Below are positions 4,868 through 40,454 of a stretch of DNA of 42,202 bases, piece by piece. Each line of letters starts with the position of its first letter. Position 1 is the first letter of the stretch. Below the pieces are notes generated by a model that was given only the letters and a program-made list of their open reading frames with translations, ran no database searches and was not told where the DNA came from. Source of the stretch: a virus (Duplodnaviria; Caudoviricetes); IMG/VR virus record IMGVR_UViG_3300023256_000008, positions 1-42,202 of that record. One strand, 5' to 3'. A program made the position numbers and the translations under genes.

Positions 4868-5353
4868 TTAGTTTTTGTTTTCATTATTTTTCTCCTTTTC
4901 TATTTTTTGTGCTTCAAATGATTCAATTACAAAACAAACATCTTCGTATGTAAGACCATTATTCGGGTCTATTATAAGTTTTGTTAAATTATTACCAAAT
5001 CCAGAAAGTTCTTCAGCACAATCATCAAGAATTACAAACTCGTCAATATTATTTGTATCTATATATTCTTTAATTTCTGAAATGCGTTTGTTATTTTCTG
5101 CAATTGGTGTAACGCCAACACATTTGTCTCTGTATTTGAATTCTACTTTTTCAAGAATTTCTATTAAGCCTTCAAAAGTGAATTGCTCTCTCCACGAAGT
5201 TGAAAAAACAATATTGGCGTTTGTTCTTTCTATTAAGGTATTTAGCAATTTTACCTTTTCTTTCATTATTAAATCTGGATAATTACTCATGTTATGAAAC
5301 AAAAACTTGCCATTATTTAATACTCCATCAAAATCTAAAAATATTACTCTCAT
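4868..5353 (-). CDS. HAD phosphatase, RNA-repair associated (HAD_SAK-like)
   Basis: VIFLDFDGVLN, IVFSTSWR, FVILDD. Confidence 0.75.
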   Translation of the reverse strand: MRVIFLDFDGVLNNGKFLFHNMSNYPDLIMKEKVKLLNTLIERTNANIVFSTSWREQFTFEGLIEILEKVEFKYRDKCVGVTPIAENNKRISEIKEYIDTNNIDEFVILDDCAEELSGFGNNLTKLIIDPNNGLTYEDVCFVIESFEAQKIEKEKNNENKN

Positions 5354-7490: not shown

Positions 7491-8043
7491 TGGTGGAGGT
7501 GGTGGGACGTTATCTTAACTCTACTTTCTCAAACCATTTATAGTAGAGACGAGACTATCGCATCATCCCATAAGGATGTCTCTTCGCTTAGTCGTTCACG
7601 CTGGCACTACCCTTGCGCCCTGTCGTCCTATGGTAGGACTTCCAAGTCAATCAGAAGAGATTTATTCACTATACCTTTCAATACAGGTCGACAATTATAC
7701 TTATCGAACCCACGTCCACGAAGTCGCCTACTATAATTTTCTTACACACTTAGTTTATTTTACAATTTCAGATGCATCAAAAATAAACAAACCATACATC
7801 GCCCTCTTCGCCAGGTACATTGCGTTTCTACATGTTTTTATCATTGTTAGTAGTCACCAATTATCCTTCATTATGACTTCGATTTGCAGTGTAGAAAGAA
7901 TAGACACCGCACGAAGGGTGGCTTACGCCGCCATTAATTGGCTGTTGCCGTTTAATTTTGTTTTGCAACATAGTTCGTATGCTCGTTGCCATCATAGTGT
8001 GAATCATATAAGGCGGGTCTCCATGTCAAAACCGGTCACCCCC
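7491..8043 (-). ncRNA. ssrA: tmRNA interrupted by a group I intron
   Basis: GGGGGTG/CACCTCC-ACCA acceptor with G3.U70; tag frame GNSQLMAA* at 7923-7949; spliced length 358 nt. Confidence 0.92.
7508..7702 (-). mobile_element. Group I intron (195 nt, no ORF) in the tmRNA T-loop
   Basis: Exons rejoin as GTGGG-TTCGAT^T-CCCAC; 5' exon ends in U, intron ends in G; guide GTCGA pairs with exon TCGAT; P3 TCTCTTC/GAAGAGA; P7 GACTA/TAGTC. Confidence 0.85.
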
Positions 8044-9535: not shown

Positions 9536-10576
9536 CTAATACTCATTATCCAGTATATTTAGGAAATTTGCCCCAATTAATTGAGCAGTTTGTTTTCCAA
9601 CATTCTTATTTATTAATTTTCTGTCTTTCTTGACAAGTACATTTAATGCATCACTACCATTTTCTTCAATGTAATCTTTCATAACATCAGCAATAAATTC
9701 TTTGTTAAGTAAACCAAAATCTTTGTTTGTAATTTCTCCAATGTGAGATAAAACGTTACGTAATCTATTTTCAGTAACATACATGCTGATTTCTTCAACG
9801 ATAGGTTTGATTGCTTCATTGACTTCTTTTAATTGCTTTTTGGGTGCTTTGGTTTTTTCTTCCCATTTTTTATTTTTATTCTTAAATGCAACTCTAGATT
9901 TATCTCTAAAGTATAAATCTTCTACTGGCATAAATACATAACCTTCCATAATATTATCTTCTATTGGTGGAAGATCGAAATCCTTATATACTTCACTCAG
10001 CTCATCATTAGGTAAAGCTATCATTTCATCAAATGTACCAATAAATAAAACTTTTGGAGTTTTAAGTTTAGATTTTGTATATGTTAAACTTTCTATTAAT
10101 TCTGTCCAAGTAACGTGCCTATTTTTTGTATTATCGTCAAATATTAAAAGTATATCATAAATATATAATTCATTATGAGGGCAATAATATATGCCTTTTT
10201 GTACTTTTTTTCCACACTTATCATTTGATACATCTGGATGTGGATAAGTTCCACCAAACAGTTCACCAAATATAGCGATTTGATTAAGATTGGGATGTAT
10301 ATTTTTAAAGTATTTATATAGCTTTCTAGCATCTTCGGAATATTTTTCCATTATTAGTTCATAATTAAAAAAGAATTCATCTTTTTCGATAAAACTGGTT
10401 CTCTTTGCTGGTTTAATTTCGTCTTTATCAACCCACACAGAAAAATTTCCGCCATGAATTTTCTCAGTTGCAACCCATTTAATATCTGGCGCATCATATT
10501 CATGTTCCCTTACCATGTTGATAAATTTTTCTCTATAACTATTTTCTATACTTCTATACTTGATAAATCTTAACAT
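9536..10576 (-). CDS. RNA ligase, Rnl2 family
   Basis: EKIHGGNFS (motif I), FGELFGG, YDI, EGYV, FKNKN plus Rnl2-like C-domain. Confidence 0.9.
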   Translation of the reverse strand: MLRFIKYRSIENSYREKFINMVREHEYDAPDIKWVATEKIHGGNFSVWVDKDEIKPAKRTSFIEKDEFFFNYELIMEKYSEDARKLYKYFKNIHPNLNQIAIFGELFGGTYPHPDVSNDKCGKKVQKGIYYCPHNELYIYDILLIFDDNTKNRHVTWTELIESLTYTKSKLKTPKVLFIGTFDEMIALPNDELSEVYKDFDLPPIEDNIMEGYVFMPVEDLYFRDKSRVAFKNKNKKWEEKTKAPKKQLKEVNEAIKPIVEEISMYVTENRLRNVLSHIGEITNKDFGLLNKEFIADVMKDYIEENGSDALNVLVKKDRKLINKNVGKQTAQLIGANFLNILDNEY

Positions 10577-13669: not shown

Positions 13670-14038
13670 TTATTTAACTATGATTGTACAACCAATTTCT
13701 TCGAATCTTTTCTTTAGTCTATTGGCTTCATCTAAATTACAGCCTGTTGATAACGCAAGATTTTTCGCTTCAACTAAATCTTTTGTTTCTTTAAGCATTG
13801 TGCCTAATATAGTTCTTGCTTCTTTAATAACTCTGATTTTCTTTGTTGGTATAAAATCAGTCATTATAACGTCAAATTCTGTTTGTGCTTCTTCTTTTAC
13901 AACTTTCTGAACAATAATAGCTTCTGGTGGCCTCGCTACAATATCGAACTCCTTTTCAAGTGCCGAAGTCGTTTCGTTAAATTCCCACACTGACATTGTT
14001 TTGATAATGTCTAATACTTGTTTAATTTTCTCGCTCAT
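13670..14038 (-). CDS. rplL: Ribosomal protein bL12 (L7/L12) homologue
   Basis: IKTMSVWE..LEKEFDI N-domain; EEAQTEFDV, KIRVIKEAR, LKETKDLVE C-domain. Confidence 0.85.
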   Translation of the reverse strand: MSEKIKQVLDIIKTMSVWEFNETTSALEKEFDIVARPPEAIIVQKVVKEEAQTEFDVIMTDFIPTKKIRVIKEARTILGTMLKETKDLVEAKNLALSTGCNLDEANRLKKRFEEIGCTIIVK

Positions 14039-19027: not shown

Positions 19028-19249
19028 TTACTCAACAATAATTCTTTTTGCCATTTTATAGCCAATTGCAATTTGAGTTTGCCCAATATTAATAGTAATG
19101 GGGCCGCACATCATTTGAGATGAAACTTTTGATATTTCGACACCAACTCTTATTCCCAAAGATTCAATTTTATTAATAAAATGCTGTCCACCAATTATAT
19201 CTTTTATTATTGCGATTTCGCCATTTTTTAATTCTGAAATTTTTCTCAT
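19028..19249 (-). CDS. feoA: FeoA-family protein
   Basis: ISELKNGE..II..LGIRVG..I...GPI.I.IG..IAIG..MA..I.V; start uncertain. Confidence 0.8.
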   Translation of the reverse strand: MRKISELKNGEIAIIKDIIGGQHFINKIESLGIRVGVEISKVSSQMMCGPITINIGQTQIAIGYKMAKRIIVE

Positions 19250-19530
19250 AATTTTATTGTTTAACTTTGTCTCCATATATTGTTTATTAACAATTTTTTT
19301 CAATTATATTATTATAAAGTTTAGATGATTCTATAAGCATATATATTGATGTTTTAATTTGTTCATTATCGATATCTGCTCTTTTGATAAAATCTATTGT
19401 GCTATTCAATAGATTGTTCCATAGTTTAAGTTTAAATTCTACTAATTCTACATTGTATTCTTCCATAATTCCTCCTCATAATTTTATTGTTTAACTTTCC
19501 CTTTAGTTGCTCCAGCTTATTATGGGTAAC

Positions 19531-26842: not shown

Positions 26843-27730
26843 CTAAAATAAATTTGAATATTCTGCTTTAACTTTTGCAAATGTAAAATGTTGCAATGTT
26901 TTAAAGTTGATTACTGGATTCTTTTGTTTTTTGATTATTTGCCAAATTTCTTCTATAACAAAATCATGATAAACTGTATGTAATAATCTTGGAATATCTT
27001 TTGATCTGAATCCACCATCTTGCTCAATCTTAGCATACACTTTATCTATCATTGCTTTTGTAAGAAAAGAGTTAACCGCTTCTTCTTCTGGTATCTTAGT
27101 TCCATTTTGAAGTGGTGCGCCCATTGCTTTATGATGTTTTTCTTTGAATTCTGATCCAACAATTTTGGCCCATGTTGTTCTTCCATATTTATTTACATAA
27201 TCATATCTTTTTATAACAATTCCTTCACCAAAGCCTTTTCCATTTTCAATTAGATATTCATTCGCATCTAATAATTTTACAAACTGTTCATACGTTCCAT
27301 TCTTTAGAATTCTTATTGGTGGAATATATTCAACTCCAAAATCTTCAAGATACGATTGGTACTCATCATAATGTAAATAAGATTTATCAACCATCACATC
27401 AAAAACATAGAATTTTTTCCACGCATTTTTACGGTAAGTTTTTAAAGAATGAGGAACAAGCCATTCTCCAAAAAGTCTATGATTCGGAAATTTATTAAGA
27501 TAATTTAAGATATTTTTATCATGTATGATATCAGTGCAAAAACCAGCATTATCTTGTTCGATAGATAATTCTCTTCTTCTACTACCTGCACACAATTCGC
27601 CTTCGCACATCCATACGCTTGCATTTGTTCCGTCAATTTTTGGAAAAACATAACATTCTCCGAATTCGATTCCTTCAACTTCGGATGTGCCAAATCTTTC
27701 AATGTGTTGGTATTTTACAAAATCCATCAT
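26843..27730 (-). CDS. RNA ligase family protein (Rnl2-like)
   Basis: PKIDGTNAS, FGEWL, VFDV, EGIVIK, WAKIV. Confidence 0.85.
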   Translation of the reverse strand: MMDFVKYQHIERFGTSEVEGIEFGECYVFPKIDGTNASVWMCEGELCAGSRRRELSIEQDNAGFCTDIIHDKNILNYLNKFPNHRLFGEWLVPHSLKTYRKNAWKKFYVFDVMVDKSYLHYDEYQSYLEDFGVEYIPPIRILKNGTYEQFVKLLDANEYLIENGKGFGEGIVIKRYDYVNKYGRTTWAKIVGSEFKEKHHKAMGAPLQNGTKIPEEEAVNSFLTKAMIDKVYAKIEQDGGFRSKDIPRLLHTVYHDFVIEEIWQIIKKQKNPVINFKTLQHFTFAKVKAEYSNLF

Positions 27731-29279: not shown

Positions 29280-29870
29280 TTATAACATTCTTTTTTTTAT
29301 TTTATCAATCATTGTTTTTAATTGTTGGGCGGTAATATAACATGCTCTTTGTCCCATAATATTTGTTGCTGATTTAATTTCATTAGTATTGTTTTTATTT
29401 TCAAATATATATGGCCTACCTTTAACTTTAGTCAAAAATTCTCCAGATTTGCCGAATATAGCATTTTTGAATTTTCTTACTTTATGGTATCCAGGAAATT
29501 CAGCATTGTTTGTTCCAATTAATTCACTTTTTTCTCCGCCCTTATATACAAATAAAACACTATCTTGCTCAAATTCTTCGCCTAACTTAACTAGATGTTT
29601 TCTTAATTTTCCACCATCTTTTAAATCTACAACAAAATAAGTTTTTTCGCCAACTTCTTTCGCTTTTGATGTACCATAATCTTCTATATATCCGCCTATA
29701 ACAGAAGTTATTCCATAACCCATTGATTGTAATAATGCTCTTAATCTTTTGTTATTTATTAAATTTATTTTTTTTATATTATTGCCTCTAAATGCTGTAA
29801 TATATCCGGTATCATGAGCAAGCGAATGATCTCGCACTCTATTTAATGACTTCTCATTTAATTTTTTCAT
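29280..29870 (-). CDS. Phage hypothetical protein
   Basis: 196 aa, AGGAG RBS, GYITAFRG, FEQDSVL. Confidence 0.75.
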   Translation of the reverse strand: MKKLNEKSLNRVRDHSLAHDTGYITAFRGNNIKKINLINNKRLRALLQSMGYGITSVIGGYIEDYGTSKAKEVGEKTYFVVDLKDGGKLRKHLVKLGEEFEQDSVLFVYKGGEKSELIGTNNAEFPGYHKVRKFKNAIFGKSGEFLTKVKGRPYIFENKNNTNEIKSATNIMGQRACYITAQQLKTMIDKIKKRML

Positions 29871-32894: not shown

Positions 32895-32984
32895 TGGCAG
32901 AGAGTCTGAGATTCGAACTCAGGGAGGGCTTGCGCCCTCAATGGTTTTCAAGACCATCGCATTCAACCACTCTGCCAACTCTCT
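32895..32984 (-). tRNA. tRNA-Ser(TGA)
   Basis: Loop CTTGAAA, long variable arm. Confidence 0.9.
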
Positions 32985-33150
32985 AAAAATGTCCCAATAC
33001 AAATCACCTACAAACAAGGTCGACCTTCGTAAGTATATGTTTTGTATACCGATTGGGGCGGATTGCAAACGTTCCCTAAACATTACAGGCTGTCACCTGT
33101 AGATATATATATATGTATAAATTATGATAAAACAATATTTTTCTAAAAAA

Positions 33151-33228
33151 TGGTGGACCTGGCGAGGCATGATCTCGCAATTATTCTTCCGTGCAAGGGA
33201 AGTGCCATCCCAATTAGGCGACAGGCCC
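33151..33228 (-). tRNA. tRNA-Ala(TGC)
   Basis: G3.U70; atypical T-loop ATCATGC. Confidence 0.8.
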
Positions 33229-33251
33229 GTATATATTTATTACTTTAAATT

Positions 33252-33329
33252 TGGCAGGCACGGAGGTATTCGAAACCCCGACACGAGGTTTTGGAGACCC
33301 CTGCTCTAACCGGACTGAGCTACGCACCT
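33252..33329 (-). tRNA. tRNA-Trp(CCA)
   Basis: Loop CTCCAAA, G73. Confidence 0.9.
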
Positions 33330-33397
33330 ATAATATTATACCCGATAAGGTATAATTTTGCTGAATTGTTTCTATATTATACCCGATAAGGTATATT

Positions 33398-33485
33398 AGT
33401 CAACCTATGTATTGACAATTCATAGTAAAAAGTCAACCTATGTATTGACAATTCATAGTAAAAAGTCAACCTATGTATTGACAAT
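33398..33485. repeat. 33-bp tandem repeat, about 2.7 copies
   Basis: agtcaacctatgtattgacaattcatagtaaaa. Confidence 0.9.
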
Positions 33486-33490
33486 AAAAA

Positions 33491-33565
33491 TGGTGGAGAG
33501 TATAGGTTTCGATCCTATTCCTTTGGTACTTCACACCAAAATGCCACCGGTTACACCAACTCTCC
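33491..33565 (-). tRNA. tRNA-Phe(GAA), atypical
   Basis: TTGGT-GTGAAGT-ACCAA; T-loop ATCGAAA. Confidence 0.7.
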
Positions 33566-33738
33566 ATAAAAGAAACATAAATATCAATGCTGTATGCTCT
33601 TGCTAATTTAATCAATACATCTGTCAATGTAGTCACGAATCCAAATAACAATTACCCACTCGTCGTAAGGCGTTTGACCAGAGTTAGCTGACAGGCAAGG
33701 ATTCTCGCTCACATATATGCATCTTTACTTATTAAACT

Positions 33739-33862
33739 ATTTGTTGGTAGGAGTCGAACCTACAATTAATTACTGGAGTCGAACCAGATTTGGATATTAT
33801 CCCTATGTCCCACATAGCTCTCCGTATTAGGAAGAGGCGTTTACCACTTTCACCACAACAAA
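33739..33862 (-). ncRNA. tRNA-like RNA with two T-arms, AAT anticodon position, no CCA
   Basis: TTTGTTG/CAACAAA; two GGTTCGACTCC arms; two extra hairpins. Confidence 0.6.
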
Positions 33863-33874
33863 TATTTAAAAATT

Positions 33875-33951
33875 TGGTCGGGCCGGCAAGGTTCGAACTT
33901 GCAATAACCAGAATCAAAACCTGGTGTCTTAGCCATTTAGACGACGGCCCA
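33875..33951 (-). tRNA. tRNA-Gln(TTG)
   Basis: Loop TTTTGAT. Confidence 0.85.
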
Positions 33952-33963
33952 TTAATAATATAT

Positions 33964-34039
33964 TGATGCAAGTGACAGAAATTAAACCTACATTGACGGA
34001 TTAAGAGTCCGTTGTAAAATCAATGTTTGCTACACCTGC
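33964..34039 (-). tRNA. tRNA-Lys(CTT), degenerate
   Basis: ACGGA-CTCTTAA-TCCGT; poor D and T arms, ends TCA. Confidence 0.6.
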
Positions 34040-34047
34040 GTAAAATT

Positions 34048-34125
34048 TGAGGTATGCGATGGAAGTCGAATCCACATCTACAGGGGTCACGATCCTGTGC
34101 TTTATTTATTTAAGTTACGCATACC
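34048..34125 (-). tRNA. tRNA-His(GTG), degenerate
   Basis: G-1/C73, C33, ends TCA. Confidence 0.65.
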
Positions 34126-34373
34126 ATATAAGATTCGTTTCTTCTGCCATTACATTCTACTGACAGAGCATTAGAATCATTTTAATTTGCAACAGTAAGT
34201 ACAATATATTGTACTTACAAGAGAAAGTTATGTTGAAATTTATCGCTTTCTTTAACATAACTATTGTCTCATGTTGAAGAAATACGTTTTTTTTAACATA
34301 AAAATTTGAACTATTGGTCAGCATTACCTGTTTCTATTTAGTACCACGTAGAGGTTGTTCAATTTACTAAATG

Positions 34374-34448
34374 TAGCCATCCTGAGACTCGAACTCAGAC
34401 TGTACAGCGTTTGAAACTGCTTCCTCTTCCAGATTGGGATAGATGGCC
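34374..34448 (-). tRNA. tRNA-Leu(CAA) with short variable loop
   Basis: GCAGT-TTCAAAC-GCTGT. Confidence 0.7.
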
Positions 34449-34512
34449 TTATATAACAAAATCAGGATACATTTTTTGCTTGCTTTACTACTTAAGCTAT
34501 CTCCCAATAAAA

Positions 34513-34591
34513 TGGTACAGACGAAGGGACTCGAACCCTCATATGACGCAGGATATGATTCTGCCGCTTCATCCAATTGAGCCACGTCTGC
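34513..34591 (-). tRNA. tRNA(CAT), Met or Ile2
   Basis: Loop ATCATAT. Confidence 0.75.
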
Positions 34592-34599
34592 ATAAAATT

Positions 34600-34675
34600 T
34601 GGCACCCCTGGAGAGATTCGAACTCCCGACTTAAAATTCGTAGTTTTATATGATATCCAATTTCACCACAGGGGC
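34600..34675 (-). tRNA. tRNA-Arg(ACG)
   Basis: Loop CTACGAA. Confidence 0.9.
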
Positions 34676-34681
34676 ATAAAT

Positions 34682-34760
34682 GATTTAAGTAGTAAAAGTG
34701 GAATCGAACCACCATTTGTCTAAAAGGCCTTGCTCAACCGCATCCTATACTAATTAAATC
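34682..34760 (-). ncRNA. Small T-arm-containing RNA
   Basis: GATTTAA/TTAAATC closing stem, GTGG-TTCGATT-CCAC. Confidence 0.4.
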
Positions 34761-34765
34761 TAAAA

Positions 34766-34842
34766 TGGAATCGGTGCCGAGACTCGAACTCGGAATTTGT
34801 AGGGTTGCAATCTACCGCCTTAGCCAATTTAGCTACACCGAC
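34766..34842 (-). tRNA. tRNA-Cys(GCA)
   Basis: Loop TTGCAAC, U73. Confidence 0.9.
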
Positions 34843-34850
34843 ATAAAATT

Positions 34851-34935
34851 TGGTACTCCTGGAGAGACTCGAACTCTCACGACCTTTCGGCCACCTGCTT
34901 CTAAGGCAGGCGTGTATTCATTCCACCACAGGAGC
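34851..34935 (-). tRNA. tRNA-Leu(TAG)
   Basis: Loop CTTAGAA, variable arm. Confidence 0.9.
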
Positions 34936-34946
34936 ATATAAAAAAA

Positions 34947-35035
34947 TGGTAGGCAAGGTGGGAGCCGAACCCACAACAGGCTTTCGCCACACTGGATTTT
35001 AAGTCCAGCCGATAATCCAATTCTCGTACTTGCCC
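34947..35035 (-). tRNA. tRNA-Leu(TAA)
   Basis: Loop CTTAAAA, variable arm. Confidence 0.85.
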
Positions 35036-35077
35036 ATTTATTTTACCGTTACATATAATTATTTTAAATTAAAAAAT

Positions 35078-35173
35078 ATGTAAAAGATAGGATTTGAACC
35101 TATAAAATAGAACTACTAATTCTATCTGACCCCCCTTCGGGGCTTTAGATTGCCACTTTCTTCACTTTTACAT
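35078..35173 (-). ncRNA. tRNA-like RNA without a normal anticodon arm or CCA
   Basis: ATGTAAAAG/CTTTTACAT; ATAGG-TTCAAAT-CCTAT. Confidence 0.5.
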
Positions 35174-35182
35174 ATTAAAATT

Positions 35183-35234
35183 TGGTATCCTACGGCCGAG
35201 AACCGTAAATCCTTACCATTTAGACGATGAGAAC
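35183..35234 (-). pseudogene. tRNA-Glu(CTC) remnant lacking the T-arm
   Basis: D-arm and TACGG-TTCTCGG-CCGTA followed directly by GGATACCA. Confidence 0.6.
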
Positions 35235-35242
35235 ATAAAGCT

Positions 35243-35328
35243 TGGTACGCCCGACGGGGTTCGAACCCGCTTCCCCATAATGGGACCAGAGTGAAAGTCT
35301 GGTGACCTGCCAATTAGTCATCAGGCGC
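35243..35328 (-). tRNA. tRNA-Glu(TTC) with long variable arm
   Basis: Loop CTTTCAC; variable arm TCCCATTATGGGGA. Confidence 0.8.
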
Positions 35329-35334
35329 ATAAAA

Positions 35335-35410
35335 TGGTATCCCTACAAGGATTCGAACCTTGACTATAAGTTTAGGAAACTCAAGTGCTTATCCATTACA
35401 CTATAGGGAC
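35335..35410 (-). tRNA. tRNA-Arg(CCT)
   Basis: Loop TTCCTAA. Confidence 0.9.
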
Positions 35411-35416
35411 ACAAAA

Positions 35417-35493
35417 TGGGGTATGAAACGGAAATCGAATCCGCATCTACAGGAGCCACAATCCTGTGCTTTTCCAATTAAGCTATTCACACC
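35417..35493 (-). tRNA. tRNA-His(GTG)
   Basis: G-1/C73, loop TTGTGGC. Confidence 0.9.
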
Positions 35494-35500
35494 ATAAAAT

Positions 35501-35578
35501 TGGTGCAGGCGGCGGGAATCGAACCCACATTTCCCGCTTAAAAGGCGGATGCCAAGACCAGTAATTTGCTACGCCTGC
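35501..35578 (-). tRNA. tRNA-Lys(TTT)
   Basis: Loop CTTTTAA. Confidence 0.85.
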
Positions 35579-35586
35579 TTGAAAAA

Positions 35587-35663
35587 TGGTACGGGCGGTT
35601 GGGCTTGAACCAACATTTCCTCGCTTATAAGACGAGTTCCTTCACCGAGTCGGACACACCCGC
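35587..35663 (-). tRNA. tRNA-Ile(TAT)
   Basis: Loop CTTATAA. Confidence 0.85.
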
Positions 35664-35676
35664 ATAATTGAAAGTT

Positions 35677-35753
35677 TGGTACGCCAGGGTGGAATCGAAC
35701 CACCAATCTTCCGGATATCAGCCGAACGCTCTAACCGACTAAGCCACTGGCGC
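35677..35753 (-). tRNA. tRNA-Ile(GAT)
   Basis: Loop CTGATAT. Confidence 0.9.
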
Positions 35754-35761
35754 ATATAATT

Positions 35762-35848
35762 TGGTAGGAGTAGAAGGATTCGAACCTACTTAGCCAACAG
35801 GCGTCCGGCCTACAACCGGGTGGAGTTCACCGTCACTCCAGTACTCCC
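35762..35848 (-). tRNA. tRNA-Tyr(GTA)
   Basis: Loop TTGTAGG, variable arm. Confidence 0.8.
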
Positions 35849-35856
35849 AAAAAAAA

Positions 35857-35932
35857 TGGTGCTCTTGGAGAGACTCGAACTCCCAACGACCTACTTACAA
35901 GGCAGGGCTTCTTCCAATTGAATTACAAGAGC
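35857..35932 (-). tRNA. tRNA-Thr(TGT)
   Basis: Loop CTTGTAA. Confidence 0.9.
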
Positions 35933-35937
35933 AAAAA

Positions 35938-36068
35938 CAGGATAATATTTTTTATTCCAACGTGTCTACCAATTTCACCATTACTAACTATCAATTAGTA
36001 AGTAGGACTCGAACCTACACGACATTACATCATCAGATTTTAATTTTTGGTTTGCTGTTATTATCCTT
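35938..36068 (-). ncRNA. YrlA-like RNA (circularly permuted tRNA on a CAGCAAA stem)
   Basis: AGGATAATA/TATTATCCT; order T-arm, loop-closed acceptor TTACTAA/TTAGTAA, D-arm. Confidence 0.65.
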
Positions 36069-36078
36069 AATATTAAAA

Positions 36079-36155
36079 TGGCGGGGATAACGGGACTTGA
36101 ACCCGTACTCTCTGCCTTGACAGGGCAGCGACTTGACCAATTCGTCTATATCCCC
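36079..36155 (-). tRNA. tRNA-Asp(GTC)
   Basis: Loop CTGTCAA, G73. Confidence 0.9.
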
Positions 36156-36216
36156 ATGTATTAAATAATCTTTTTTGTTATTTTCTTTTAATTTTTCGTT
36201 CACATCTCTATAAATT

Positions 36217-36301
36217 TGGTGCGAGTGGTAAGATTCGAACTTACTTAGCCTAGGCGTCAGCTTTACAGGCTGGTGCAACTCTCCCACGTTGCCGCACTCG
36301 C
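36217..36301 (-). tRNA. tRNA-Tyr(GTA)
   Basis: Loop CTGTAAA, variable arm. Confidence 0.85.
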
Positions 36302-36340
36302 ATAAAACTTAATCAGCAACATATTACTGATTATAAAAAA

Positions 36341-36416
36341 TGGCTGTCCTGGAGGGGCTTGAACCCACATTTGTCACGTTAACAGCGTGCCGCCTTACCG
36401 AGTTGGCTACAGGACA
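36341..36416 (-). tRNA. tRNA-Asn(GTT)
   Basis: Loop CTGTTAA, G73. Confidence 0.9.
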
Positions 36417-36423
36417 ATAAAAA

Positions 36424-36500
36424 TGGTACCCAGCATCGGACTTGAACCGATACAACCTATCTTGTAAGGATAGTGCTCTCCCAAATTGAGCTAGCTGGGC
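36424..36500 (-). tRNA. tRNA-Val(TAC)
   Basis: Loop CTTACAA. Confidence 0.9.
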
Positions 36501-36512
36501 ATAAATTAATAA

Positions 36513-36591
36513 TGGTGGAGATACTGGGATTTGAACCCAGCTGACGTCCTGATTGCAAAACAGGTGACCACCCCTAGCAGTCCCTATCCCC
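36513..36591 (-). tRNA. tRNA-Ala(TGC)
   Basis: G3.U70, loop TTTGCAA. Confidence 0.85.
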
Positions 36592-36600
36592 GTGTAAAAA

Positions 36601-36677
36601 TGGTACACCCGATGAGACTTGAACTCATAACTTCAGCCTTAAAAGGGCCGTACTCTGCGCAATTGAGTTACGGGTGC
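36601..36677 (-). tRNA. tRNA-Lys(TTT)
   Basis: Loop CTTTTAA. Confidence 0.9.
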
Positions 36678-36700
36678 ATAAAAAATAAAATATATAAAAA

Positions 36701-36776
36701 TGGCACCCCCACAAGGATTCGAACCTTGACTATAAGTTTAGAAAACTTAAGTGCTCGTCCATTACACTATAGGGGC
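36701..36776 (-). tRNA. tRNA-Arg(TCT)
   Basis: Loop TTTCTAA; near-duplicate of Arg(CCT). Confidence 0.9.
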
Positions 36777-36794
36777 ATAAAAAATATAATAATA

Positions 36795-36874
36795 TGGTGG
36801 AGACGGAGGGTATCGAACCCTCGAACTAAACGTTCCATTTGTTGGTTTACGTTCAGTTTCACCTTTTCGCCCCC
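36795..36874 (-). ncRNA. 80-nt RNA resembling the tmRNA tRNA-like domain
   Basis: GGGGGCG/CGTCTCC-ACCA with G3.U70, no D-stem, long helix in place of the anticodon arm, canonical T-arm. Confidence 0.65.
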
Positions 36875-36953
36875 TGGGAACGGATTGCGGAGTTGAACCA
36901 CATTTAATACTGGCTTATGAAACCTGCCGAGATACCGACCTCGTCCATCCGTG
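36875..36953 (-). tRNA. tRNA(CAT), atypical, 1:72 mismatch
   Basis: Loop TTCATAA, CCA. Confidence 0.65.
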
Positions 36954-36969
36954 TCGTAATAATAATAAA

Positions 36970-37044
36970 TGGAGCGGGCTGGGGGTTACAATCCCCCGAC
37001 TAATGGTTGGAAGCCACTTATTTTGTCAATTAAACTAAGCCCGC
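36970..37044 (-). tRNA. tRNA-Gly(TCC)
   Basis: Loop CTTCCAA, U73; atypical T-loop ATTGTAA. Confidence 0.8.
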
Positions 37045-37063
37045 TTAAATTGTTTTTTTATTT

Positions 37064-37140
37064 TGGTCGGGTGAGCCAGAATCGAACTGGCTAATCCAGG
37101 TTTCCAGAACCCAGATGCTTATAGCCTTAGTCACCACCCG
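37064..37140 (-). tRNA. tRNA-Pro(TGG), atypical
   Basis: C1-G72, A73, loop TCTGGAA, extended anticodon stem. Confidence 0.75.
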
Positions 37141-37208
37141 TTATTTGTCTTATAATATATTGTATGCTATAAACATACAATTGTATTCCTTAAACATACA
37201 ATAAAAGT

Positions 37209-37266
37209 CAGGACATATTTATTTACTTTACAATAGTAGTTTTTTTAATTTGCTGTATATGTCCTT
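37209..37266 (-). ncRNA. CAGCAAA-family small RNA
   Basis: AGGACATAT/ATATGTCCT stem with ACAGCAAA. Confidence 0.5.
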
Positions 37267-37280
37267 TACATATATAATAT

Positions 37281-37324
37281 TGGTACCGAAGGGCAGACTC
37301 GAACTGCCAACCTTTAGATTATGA
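37281..37324 (-). pseudogene. 3' half of a disrupted tRNA(CAT)
   Basis: TCATAA-TCTAA-AGGTT-GGCAG-TTCGAGT-CTGCC-CTTCGGT-ACCA. Confidence 0.8.
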
Positions 37325-38107
37325 CTTCATAATTATTAATTCGCACTCATAACCATTATTCTTATACATTTTAAATTTATCATCCATATTTTGTTTATTA
37401 TAAGTATAATTACATTTTATTTCTACTATTTTATTTTCCAAAGGTAAGTAAAAATCTGGTATTGCTATACTATATCTTTTTTTTTGAGTATCATAATATA
37501 TAAGCCTTTTTGATTCCATTTCATATGGAATTTTTTGTTTGTCTAAATTTTTGGCATATCTTAGTTCGTAACTGCTTCTGTAAAATACTTGTTTTCCGTG
37601 CCAAGTTGTATGCCATCCATGTTTGTACTTGTTTTCACAAGGCATATTACGTCTATTATTATGCAAACAAATTAATTGAGCCTTAGATTTTCTTCTCATA
37701 GAAATTTTATGTTTATTAAAGAAATTACGTAACGATAATTCATGTATATTAAATTTTTCTTGTATTTCCAATGATGATAGTTGTAAGTTATTATATAAAT
37801 ATCATAATTTTTGTAATGCTTCGTGCCCTGCCTCTTTTAATGATAGGTCGGTATAATTTATATCTAACCTGTCAAATAATAGTTTATTTTGTATATATTT
37901 ATGACATTCAAAGCAATATTTTTTCTTACTTTTGGGCGTTTTATTATTACAACTAATACAATAAGTTTGTGTATTTTTTTGTAATGAATTGCTTATTTTT
38001 TCTTTTGTTTTTTGAGAATGATTTCGAGAATTGGCGCAACTTCTGCCACAAAACCTTCCAGAACCATAATTGCCGTCATGTTCTTTATTACAATTTTCAC
38101 ATTTCAT
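37319..38107 (-). CDS. Homing endonuclease-like protein (Zn ribbons, NUMOD3, TnsA-like nuclease); needs TGA=Trp x1
   Basis: Tracked ORFs 37802-38107 and 37319-37771 are in frame across a single TGA; YRSSYE, IPDF, VEIK; 262 aa. Confidence 0.8.
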
Positions 38108-38180
38108 AATTGTTCTCCTATATTAATAAGTATAGTCGAACCTAAAAATTTAGTATATATTTTTTTATATACCAAAAAAA

Positions 38181-38257
38181 TGGTAGCGATAACTGGACTT
38201 GAACCAGTAACCTCACAAGATATGAGCTTGGAATTCTACCAATTGAACTATATCGCC
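38181..38257 (-). tRNA. tRNA(CAT), probably Met
   Basis: GGCGATA/TATCGCT-ACCA, loop CTCATAT. Confidence 0.85.
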
Positions 38258-38270
38258 ATAATTGTATTAT

Positions 38271-38294
38271 GCCCACCAGTTGTGCTACTTCGGT
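38271..38294 (-). pseudogene. 5' fragment of the disrupted tRNA(CAT)
   Basis: ACCGAAG-TA-GCACAACTGGT; ACCGAAG is the exact complement of CTTCGGT in the 3' half. Confidence 0.7.
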
Positions 38295-38420
38295 ATAAAT
38301 TTTGAATATCTTACATCCACAAAGACCACTTCTATAAGTTGAGATTGTTTCTCAACCCTCTTATAAAGATTCTGCTAACTTTCACTTATTTTACTTATTC
38401 TAAAAAAACTTTTTACAAAC

Positions 38421-38453
38421 AAAAAAGCCCAAGACTTTAGGTTCTTGGGCTTT
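38421..38453 (-). terminator. Attenuator terminator upstream of the tRNA array
   Basis: AAAGCCCAAGA/TCTTGGGCTTT plus U run. Confidence 0.8.
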
Positions 38454-38474
38454 ATAATATATTTATATCTTAAC

Positions 38475-38606
38475 TTATATAAAGCCCGGCGGTCCCAATT
38501 CACCAAAAATCGCATCCACTGTATTCATATTTCTATGGCAATACGGACGTTCCTGTGGTGTCCATGTTGATAACGATTTGAGTGATATTGAACTTTGCTT
38601 TTTCAT
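38475..38606 (-). CDS. Putative leader peptide (43 aa, all 20 amino acids)
   Basis: AAGGA RBS; MKKQSSISLKSLSTWTPQERPYCHRNMNTVDAIFGELGPPGFI*; last codons form the antiterminator arm. Confidence 0.75.
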   Translation of the reverse strand: MKKQSSISLKSLSTWTPQERPYCHRNMNTVDAIFGELGPPGFI

Positions 38607-38924
38607 TTTGATATTCCTTTTTAATTTTTTTTGAAACTCTTTTTGTCTCTTACATTAATATATATTGAGACAATAAAGAAAACTCTATTTTTTTTGTTTT
38701 TTTTTAAAATTTGTTAACTTAGGTCTAACTCTTTTGTTTCATTCTCTAAAAATCCTGCCTTTCGGAACTATCCTTACGACTGCTTCTCGGGACTTACGCC
38801 GTAGGACATTTTCAGGGCTAATGAGAAATAAAACCATATTAACATTTCACTCTATATTCTTTTAAGTGAGCTGACACTTTAGCCATTTAACCCTATTGAG
38901 GCAGATGTGGGACTCACTTGCTCT

Positions 38925-38988
38925 TTCACTTTATATAGACAACATAATCTATTAGGATAAATTGTCAAATCTTTTTTTACTTTTTTTT
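38925..38988 (-). promoter_or_regulatory. Promoter duplicated at about 40247-40308
   Basis: TTGACA-N16-TATGTT; near-identical ~60-bp copies, each ahead of a non-coding structured region. Confidence 0.65.
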
Positions 38989-38998
38989 CTTGATGAAT

Positions 38999-39130
38999 GA
39001 AAAAGTAAGGCTGGGTCTGCGTTTGTATTCCCAGCTTTTTGTTATTTGGTTTTATGTTTGGTCTTTTATCCGGACTGTACGGCCGGAAGACGTTCGGATC
39101 CAAAAATAACCGCAGGTCGCTTACTTTTTC
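38999..39130 (-). ncRNA. Rod-shaped ncRNA candidate, possibly 6S-like
   Basis: GAAAAAGTAAG/CTTACTTTTTC closing stem, CTGCG/CGCAG, apical TCCGG/CCGGA. Confidence 0.4.
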
Positions 39131-39503
39131 ACTCTATAATTTGTTTGGTAAATATAATATTTCAGCATTAATATTCCTGCAATTACCGTGCCCTTTTCTC
39201 ACATACACGAGCAAGTCATATAATTAAATACAAGTTATTCTGTATGCTGTTTCTTTACACTAATATTCCCCAATTTTTATTTGAAAGGTGGGGTTAAATC
39301 AGCCTTAGTCCATACCCAGGAGCCTGTATCGCAATTTATATAATTATTTCGTCAATCTGTTTTTGCTCCGGAACCATAGTCAGCAGATAAACCTTAGGTC
39401 TCATTCCCACGCTCAATACGTATCAAACGTATATAACAAAATAACTAATGTGCGGTCATTGGCTTTAATCCAAATGGCGCTTTCAACCGTCTCTCAAACA
39501 TTA

Positions 39504-39644
39504 AATAGAATAGAATAAATTGCCAGTCGTTCAACATAAATGAGACCTTCAGCATCCAACAGCAGTCTCTTGTTTTTGGTTGCCCTGTCTTACGGGGGTT
39601 GGATTTAACAATGCTTTCACACGTTTGATTTATTCTATTCTATT
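39504..39644 (-). ncRNA. Structured RNA candidate closed by a 17-bp inverted repeat
   Basis: aatagaatagaataaat/atttattctattctatt; internal ATCCAAC/GTTGGAT and GAGAC/GTCTC. Confidence 0.45.
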
Positions 39645-39650
39645 AATTAA

Positions 39651-39826
39651 ATAAATGGTAGGATTCGATTCCTACATTCTATGGCCACTTGAATCATAAA
39701 AAAACGCTTTACCTCTTTATTAAGCTACCAACCAATTAAGTTTGGGGTTAAATTAGGAATTCAACCTAATCGGACTCGAACCGCCACTATATTTTTTTAT
39801 GTGCGTCTCTATTGCGCCACATCTAT
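39651..39826 (-). ncRNA. Nested double tRNA-like RNA
   Basis: Outer acceptor, D-arm and T-arm; long anticodon helix encloses a second T-arm and D-arm. Confidence 0.55.
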
Positions 39827-39984
39827 TCTATTAAAAAATGATACAAGGAACATAAGGTTCGAACTCATAAATCGTCTTTGCCTTTGACAGTTAAGTATCA
39901 TTTTTTCTCTTTCACTCTATATAACTATAATATTCTTTTAGGTAATCTTGTCAATTCTTTTTTCGTTTTTCTTTTAATAACATA

Positions 39985-40240: not shown

Positions 40241-40454
40241 TTTTTTTTCACTCTATATAGACAACATAATCTATTAGGATAAATTGTCAAATCTTTTTTT
40301 ACTTTTTTCCTTATTGTTATTTTTTATCTTATTTGACAATTCAAATTGTCTTATTGTCATTTTACTTAATCGTTGTGTGAATATCGCATTCAACCAATTT
40401 CGATTTTAAATCTATAACAGAACCTCTTGCCAAATATAGTAAAGTTTATGCACT

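Follow-up and report, generated by a model that had tools for sequence, protein, structure and literature searches.

A leader element composed of a short open reading frame (ORF) with codons for all 20 amino acids, an antiterminator, and an intrinsic terminator precedes a large tRNA gene array in the phage sequence studied here, and we consider it probable (probability about 0.8) that this element is a ribosome-coupled transcription attenuator for the phage tRNA array. The leader/terminator layout is a real, recurrent regulatory element. The window, which is the whole stretch of DNA that was analyzed, comprises the entire virus record (42,202 bases; G+C content, 32%), and the sequence of this record occurs in salt-lake metagenome runs. 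It represents part of a large phage and contains 34 tRNA genes and a tmRNA (full match at 7701-8036), and the genes examined in the window are on the minus strand.

Among the other genes of the window are a homolog of ribosomal protein L7/L12 with both Pfam domains (13670-14038, minus), a SAM-lyase-family gene (29280-29870), FeoA (19028-19303), and DNA methyltransferases. Two RNA ligases and a protein with the HAD_SAK_2 RNA-repair domain (9536-10576, 26843-27730, and 4868-5353, all minus) are consistent with a theme of tRNA repair.

The leader ORF and the predicted folding switch

The element consists of the following features.

38475-38606, minus: leader ORF, 43 codons, all 20 amino acids, no Pfam match
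38615-38619, minus: Shine-Dalgarno-like sequence AAGGA, 8 nt 5' of the ATG
38502-38579, minus: codons 10 to 35, a 26-codon stretch with all 20 amino acids, inside the predicted sensing zone (codons 1 to 36)
38478-38487, minus: antiterminator 5' arm GGGCTTTATA, last base of codon 40 plus codons 41 to 43
38447-38456, minus: shared segment TATAAAGCCC, antiterminator 3' arm, overlapping the terminator 5' arm
38416-38453, minus: intrinsic terminator and U-rich tail, 11 pairs, -15.7 kcal/mol, with the hairpin at 38424-38453

A preliminary description of this DNA had reported a 43-codon ORF with a ribosome-binding site and all 20 amino acids, 18 of them within 23 residues. Both statements were borne out, and all 20 types are moreover present within residues 10 to 35, so that the set is first complete by codon 35. 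Tryptophan, cysteine, histidine, tyrosine, valine, aspartate, and alanine each occur once (alanine, 1/43). The probability of all 20 types in 43 codons was 0.016 at the ORF's own base composition, and that of all 20 in the first 35 codons was 0.0022 in simulation; all 20 fell inside some 26-residue stretch in 58 of 400,000 simulations. All 20 types were present in 37 of 4,786 43-residue windows from the long minus-strand ORFs of the contig and in 3 of the 379 short ORFs of the window, the other two of which are longer (57 to 58 amino acids).

The leader ORF is a predicted gene on 16 contigs. Its peptide cluster has four members with three variants, which differ at only 1 to 3 positions and all contain 20 types. 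A search with the leader peptide returned matches only from its own cluster, and blastn of 38100-39100 against cultured phages matched a tRNA and nothing else. Loci fetched via the neighboring protein (37 to 54% identical) included no syntenic relatives of the window locus. Because no close relative of the locus was found, conservation of the window's element rests on the three peptide variants. Contigs from runs X17, X19, and X20 span the element with zero differing letters, and no variant of it was seen in contigs from 8 of the 24 listed runs.

The synonymous codons that had been listed as varied are indeed present, but their variety does not exceed chance: the leader has 31 distinct codons compared to 30.0 expected from phage codon usage (P = 0.39), and uniform codon choice would give 33.2. 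Synonymous-codon design was thus rejected for the window's copy. Coverage of the array's anticodons was likewise at the chance level (26/30 versus 24.1; P = 0.17). ATA is used twice and CTC once, the latter having a 2% share in phage genes. Codons 1 to 38 gave a folding score of -24.2 versus -18.2 ± 3.1, and 10 of 300 shuffles folded equally well; a pause hairpin within the ORF is therefore a weak candidate.

The last leader codons (38478-38487) pair perfectly over 10 bp with the terminator-overlapping segment (38447-38456), as had been described, to give an antiterminator of about -12 to -13 kcal/mol. The terminator reported there is also strong, with 11 pairs followed by a U tract, and is one of only two strong minus-strand terminators detected in the 42 kb. 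A search for the three-part motif found it once in the window and in none of 100 shuffled sequences.

Nascent RNA was folded under constraint, with the ribosome footprint set from -16 to +13 about the A-site codon, an assumption based on toeprint geometry. The antiterminator was predicted to form with probability 1.0 when the RNA was free of ribosomes or the A site was at any of codons 1 to 36, and with probability 0 when the A site was anywhere from codon 37 through the stop. This prediction agrees with the switch logic first proposed, in which a ribosome at the stop masks the antiterminator. The accompanying proposal that a stall at any codon opens the switch holds in the model for codons 1 to 36 and fails for codons 37 to 43, where a stall would terminate transcription, given the assumed footprint. 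At equilibrium, the full-length RNA was predicted to divide nearly evenly between the two states (0.51/0.49), and thus the outcome of the switch would rest on folding order. In the folding analysis, the leader lacked the protector (1:2) pairing that would terminate transcription when the leader is untranslated. Because no upstream segment sequesters the antiterminator arm, read-through is the predicted default.

The tRNA array and its promoters

The preliminary description had placed a tRNA array for all 20 amino acids downstream of the leader. The array is there, with 30 genes (32895-38257) on the same minus strand as the leader. Promoters were scored with a weight matrix built from nine phage promoters.

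39927-39954, minus: strong phage-type promoter TTGACA-16-TATTAT, 11/12 consensus, likely source of the leader transcript
38941-38968, minus: nearest promoter-like site upstream of the leader, score 14.1 (best plus-strand background, 13.3)
38181-38257, minus: first tRNA gene, anticodon CAT, 167 nt past the terminator
37319-38107, minus: two ORFs inserted in the array (101 and 150 amino acids), the 150-residue ORF with weak endonuclease-like matches
33491-37140, minus: main tRNA block, 26 further ARAGORN genes
33376-33403, minus: internal promoter, 11/12 consensus, ahead of the last three tRNAs
32895-33329, minus: tRNA-Trp, -Ala, and -Ser, 3' of the promoter at 33403

The promoter at 39954 scored 42.4 as a training site and 30.1 when left out, and the matrix also picked out other strong sites in the rest of the sequence. 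No phage-type promoter was found directly upstream of the leader (score, 3.3), and a dedicated promoter at that position was dropped as a candidate on the basis of the weight matrix. Between 38420 and 33403, no strong phage-type promoter was found either, the best score (4.9) being at background level (plus-strand scores up to 13.3). With no strong promoter between the terminator and 33403, 27 tRNA genes, which serve 18 amino acids, seem to require read-through of the terminator. Transcription of the array from promoters past the terminator, raised earlier as an outcome that would contradict the model, finds no strong promoter for these 27 genes; it may apply to tRNA-Trp, -Ala, and -Ser, which are probably independent of read-through given the promoter at 33403. 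The leader carries Trp and Ser codons, even though tRNA-Trp and tRNA-Ser sit behind that promoter.

Several other features of the region were observed. A near-identical promoter-like block occurs twice (38924-38986 and about 40246-40308, minus). An inverted repeat, TTGTCTC-N17-GAGACAA (38643-38673), lies just 5' of the ribosome-binding site and is a possible operator or 5' hairpin. The upstream segment 38735-38935 did not behave as a structured RNA (z = -0.62) and had no Rfam match; the GC-richer noncoding stretch 38735-39900 contains tRNA-like fragments, also without an Rfam match. Short tandem repeats (33340-33480, minus) overlap the promoter at 33403, between tRNA-Phe and tRNA-Trp. Two tRNAs have unusual anticodons, tRNA-Ile(TAT) at 35587-35663 and tRNA-Leu(AAG) at 35078-35172, both minus, and degenerate tRNA-like genes at 33967-34039, 34049-34125, and 36875-36953 were visible only at a lower threshold. 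Within the array, an 80-nt RNA (36795-36876, minus) with a G3-U70-type acceptor stem, a CCA end, and no message part resembles only the tRNA-like domain of tmRNA (38.4 bits against the Rfam tmRNA model; cutoff, 47).

These features suggest the following sequence of events. RNA polymerase starting from an upstream promoter, which we infer to be that at 38968 or 39954, would transcribe the leader. A ribosome that translated the leader and kept pace to codon 37 or beyond would cover 38478-38487, so that the terminator would fold and transcription would stop 167 nt before the first tRNA. If the ribosome were held at codons 1 to 36, or were absent, the antiterminator would fold first and the 27 tRNA genes would be transcribed. 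With the protector segment absent, the default state would be ON and completed translation would be the OFF signal. This scheme assumes that transcription and translation are coupled in the phage's host. Having only one or two codons per amino acid, the leader would be a poor sensor of mild starvation but would respond well if any one charged tRNA, or ribosome activity, were almost entirely lost. Once made, the phage tRNAs would allow decoding to resume and so shut the switch again, a negative feedback. Nuclease attack fits the sensitivity expected of such a leader, and we infer, as the preliminary description did, that anticodon-nuclease attack may be the trigger; severe starvation or ribosome damage would open the switch too.

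Related leaders in other phages

To find related elements, viral contigs were searched with three stem patterns (103, at least 120, and 78 stretches), metagenomes with one (5/64 parts), and genomes with one (10/64 parts). The RNA arms are part of the search pattern, so that only the ORF and the tRNAs serve as independent signals in these matches. Matches were dereplicated, and those with less than 150 nt upstream, or tRNA-free with less than 1,500 nt downstream, were left out (35 viral). A broad leader was defined as an ATG ORF of 12 to 60 codons with at least 18 amino acid types that ends at the antiterminator.

Among the matches listed, a broad leader was present in 44 of 81 tRNA-linked viral loci versus 1 of 105 tRNA-free loci (Fisher p = 5e-19), and 26 of these 44 leaders had all 20 types. 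After clustering, the corresponding values among the matches listed were 17/27 with tRNAs and 1/80 without (p = 6e-12). All-20 leaders made up 27 of the 80 distinct tRNA-linked leaders listed, the window's included, compared to 0.9 expected. For 42 broad leaders among the matches listed, folding predicted the antiterminator in 42/42 without a ribosome and in 42/42 with a ribosome in mid-ORF, and its loss with a ribosome at the stop in 38/42; the stop of the broad leaders listed lay a median of 14 nt past the start of the arm.

Most of the remaining tRNA-linked leaders were narrower, with contents such as Asp/Glu/Val/Leu or Ala/Lys that corresponded to the tRNA block of the same locus. Among the matches listed, 22 narrower leaders, several of them mutually related, were enriched for the amino acids of the downstream tRNAs (0.106 versus 0.058 in shuffled pairings; 0 of 20,000). 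In viral contigs L423 to L497, such leaders preceded blocks for Asp/Glu/Val/Leu and for Cys/Ser/Phe/Arg/Gly/Asn/Thr, with further leader-block matches for Gln/Thr/Phe/Val/Leu and Thr/Arg/Ile, which suggests that these phages divide the code among attenuators. In metagenome contigs L105, L108, L133, L152, L185, and L193, which may come from phages or from cells, Ala/Lys-rich leaders with a common C-terminal motif preceded blocks with tRNA-Ala/Lys.

Other properties of the window's leader were less general. Across the family as listed, amino acid types were not concentrated upstream of the footprint at a 14-nt offset (17.6 versus 17.4), and the set was complete before the footprint in 6 of 49 listed leaders at 14 nt and in 28 of 49 at 6 nt. 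As a family rule, a full set ahead of the footprint is therefore unsupported at 14 nt and weak at 6 to 10 nt, and the neat fit of the window's leader is not general. Among the matches listed, codon variety exceeded locus usage in 40 of 40 leaders, yet was near that of uniform choice (mean z, 0.45), and single-copy residues were not significantly better conserved than others (14/178 versus 89/691; p = 0.07). The number of types was kept in 21 of 25 close uncultured pairs among the matches listed versus 14.2 expected, in a set restricted to leaders with at least 17 types.

A peptide search with an alignment of 12 pattern-found leaders retrieved 42 loci, seeds included. All 34 distinct loci had tRNAs downstream, and 33 had a terminator. 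The 31 distinct peptides had 20 types in 25 cases and 19 in the other 6, with a median identity-like score of 0.42. In this peptide-fetched family, the antiterminator arms covary: across 17 arm combinations, 201 Watson-Crick pairs were found versus 181 ± 3.5 (0 of 20,000 permutations, uncorrected for kinship). Short all-amino-acid ORFs with covarying arms upstream of other phages' tRNA arrays, which the preliminary description had proposed to look for, were thus found in many. In two loci fetched via an unrelated neighboring protein, L242 and L255, an all-20 leader of 41 codons and a terminator precede 27 to 28 tRNAs. The 33-tRNA array of L291/L292 has no leader and terminator, as judged from L291.

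Of 10 cultured phage arrays, those of Vibrio phage 1.081.O and Xanthomonas phage X1 have a leader and terminator; no leader-plus-terminator was found in the other eight (T5, phAPEC8, BcoS-136, P59, Boevelstad, Pyxpy01, Akh-2, and DC31). L624 and L625 were left out of this count, having fewer than three tRNAs each. The Vibrio element matches 48 records. In nine of nine examined KVP40-like Vibrio phages, picked by DNA similarity and including nt-1, an ORF of 37 to 38 codons with 18 to 20 types, its stop, and the terminator are kept (KVP40 leader ORF, L633:1590-1703), and pN/pS in these leader ORFs was mostly 0.4 to 1.4. GenBank annotates the opposite strand over the KVP40 leader; an ORF on that strand was rejected as a conserved feature because its length varies among relatives. 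The predicted switch was clean in X1. In the Vibrio phages the antiterminator is weaker, a short split helix, and 1.081.O showed no clean switch, the antiterminator probability being 0.64 to 0.84 at every ribosome position.

Outside phages, tRNAs were downstream of 0 of 114 dereplicated pattern matches in bacterial genomes (10/64 parts). One of the 69 tRNA-free genome matches, in Emticicia agri (L525:2556-2651, minus), has a 31-codon leader with 19 types (P = 0.007) and the same switch motif, followed by a PcfJ-like gene and an RNA ligase instead of tRNAs. It could be a bacterial counterpart or chance.

Other explanations of the element were weighed against attenuation by the ribosome. That a chance ORF lies beside an ordinary terminator, with the tRNAs transcribed from other promoters, is very improbable. 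All 20 types in 43 codons has by itself a probability of 0.016 and is seen in 3/379 short ORFs of the window, and the search for close relatives of the locus found none, but a perfect 10-bp antiterminator at the end of the ORF, the occurrence of the motif in 0 of 100 shuffles, the lack of a strong promoter between the terminator and 33403, the contrast between loci with and without tRNAs, and the covariation of the arms all argue against it. It is also very unlikely that the peptide itself is functional, as an arrest peptide or small protein, with its amino acid variety a by-product. The pN/pS of 0.45 across the 25 close pairs among the matches listed would agree with a functional peptide, as would a few invariant residues inside one family and the small differences (1 to 3 positions) between the window leader's variants. 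Against this, the leaders form many families that lack a common sequence (69 ORFs in the matches listed, some not tRNA-linked, fell into 38 groups at 45% identity), the window's leader has no relative beyond its own cluster, and pairs from cultured phages reach a pN/pS of about 1 or more and still have 18 to 20 types.

An unlikely, but more serious, alternative is a fixed developmental switch, in which host shutoff or a phage antitermination protein opens the attenuator in every infection and so times the tRNAs rather than sensing damage. The state without a ribosome is predicted to be ON, as this alternative would have it. Furthermore, for the 49 broad leaders among the matches listed, a TATAAATA/TATAAT-like box lies no more than 25 nt from the ATG in 23, and a Shine-Dalgarno-like motif is present in only 4, so that many leaders may be poorly translated or belong to late transcripts. 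However, a timer needs no complete set of amino acids, which leaves the all-20 leaders (27/80 versus 0.9 expected among the matches listed) unaccounted for; narrower leaders match their own tRNA blocks; and the window's copy has a ribosome-binding site. Sensing of translation by the ribosome remains the preferred reading.

With somewhat less than even confidence, we propose that the leader is a repeatedly evolved surveillance gene, which would sample each amino acid once or twice, detect the loss of any single host tRNA to an anti-phage nuclease, and release a full replacement set in that event alone. It would be an inducible, target-agnostic counter-defense, in cultured KVP40/nt-1-like phages as well, with a possible bacterial counterpart before RNA-repair genes (L525).

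Comparison with known regulatory systems

Leader-peptide attenuators such as trpL, hisL, pheL, and leuL sense a single amino acid type, and thrL and ilvL are multivalent. In these classical attenuators, regulatory codons for one to three amino acids occur in runs, the controlled genes encode biosynthetic enzymes or synthetases, and a protector segment terminates transcription when the leader is untranslated. The phage leader resembles the trpL/hisL/thrL type in its short ORF with a ribosome-binding site and in a predicted antiterminator that would exclude an intrinsic terminator and be masked by the ribosome near the stop. In contrast to that type, it has all 20 amino acid types instead of regulatory codon runs, has no protector pairing, and precedes tRNA genes rather than biosynthetic or synthetase genes. 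The best match to an Rfam leader family was to Thr_leader (22.8 bits; cutoff, 55 bits). The phage leader falls outside the trp/his class. T-box riboswitches also choose between terminator and antiterminator according to tRNA status, by binding one uncharged tRNA directly, without translation; no Rfam T-box match was found in the window at gathering or E-value thresholds. A model of classical leader-peptide attenuation is presented in PMC1183508.

Whether phage tRNA arrays serve codon compensation or replace damaged host tRNAs is a decades-old question. Phage tRNAs reportedly act as counter-defense against PARIS, retron PtuAB, and PrrC. According to PMC11555353, phage tRNAs counter tRNA-cutting nuclease defense, which supplies a likely purpose for the array, namely, replacing tRNAs destroyed in the host. 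T5-like counter-defense tRNAs reportedly rely on a strong promoter, and the T5 tRNA region has no comparable leader-plus-terminator. If the window's array opens only upon decoding failure, replacement would gain direct evidence from regulation, and which tRNAs each phage monitors could be read from the codon content of its leader. With a similar element in cultured phages, among them nt-1 and QD01, which grow on Vibrio natriegens, the question can be addressed by reporter assays and ordinary infections. The leader could double as a small reporter for finding tRNA-cutting defense systems.

A tRNA array under stress control has been described in Anabaena, in which the 26-gene trn operon is normally silent and is turned on under translational stress (PMC10272220). 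That array is on a plasmid, and a DNA-binding repressor, TrcR, acts at its promoter, whereas the phage leader is a predicted attenuator; neither 'attenuat' nor 'leader' occurs in that paper. The same two terms and 'terminator' are absent from the main text of a 2026 survey of phage tRNA genes (PMC13015707). Searches of an open-access library brought up no paper on leader-peptide attenuation of tRNA genes, a scope that leaves subscription journals largely outside, so that a published description may have been missed.

The closest relative in logic is the whiB7 upstream ORF (uORF) attenuator of mycobacteria. According to PMC10274678, efficient translation of the uORF leads to termination, read-through follows when the ribosome stalls or the start codon is lost, and the uORF's own amino acids are the ones sensed; the M. 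smegmatis uORF has all but Cys. The phage leader is alike in that, by predicted folding, completed translation would terminate transcription and a stall or lack of initiation would allow read-through. Broad uORF sensing having been shown for whiB7, the phage switch logic is not itself new. The bacterial system controls a transcription factor, and its uORF is selected for Ala richness (25 to 40%), not completeness; the phage leader has 1 Ala in 43 codons and 20 types in 26 codons, and its target is a tRNA array. The mechanism would thus be a known one, of the whiB7 type, with tRNA genes added to the targets of ribosome-mediated attenuation.
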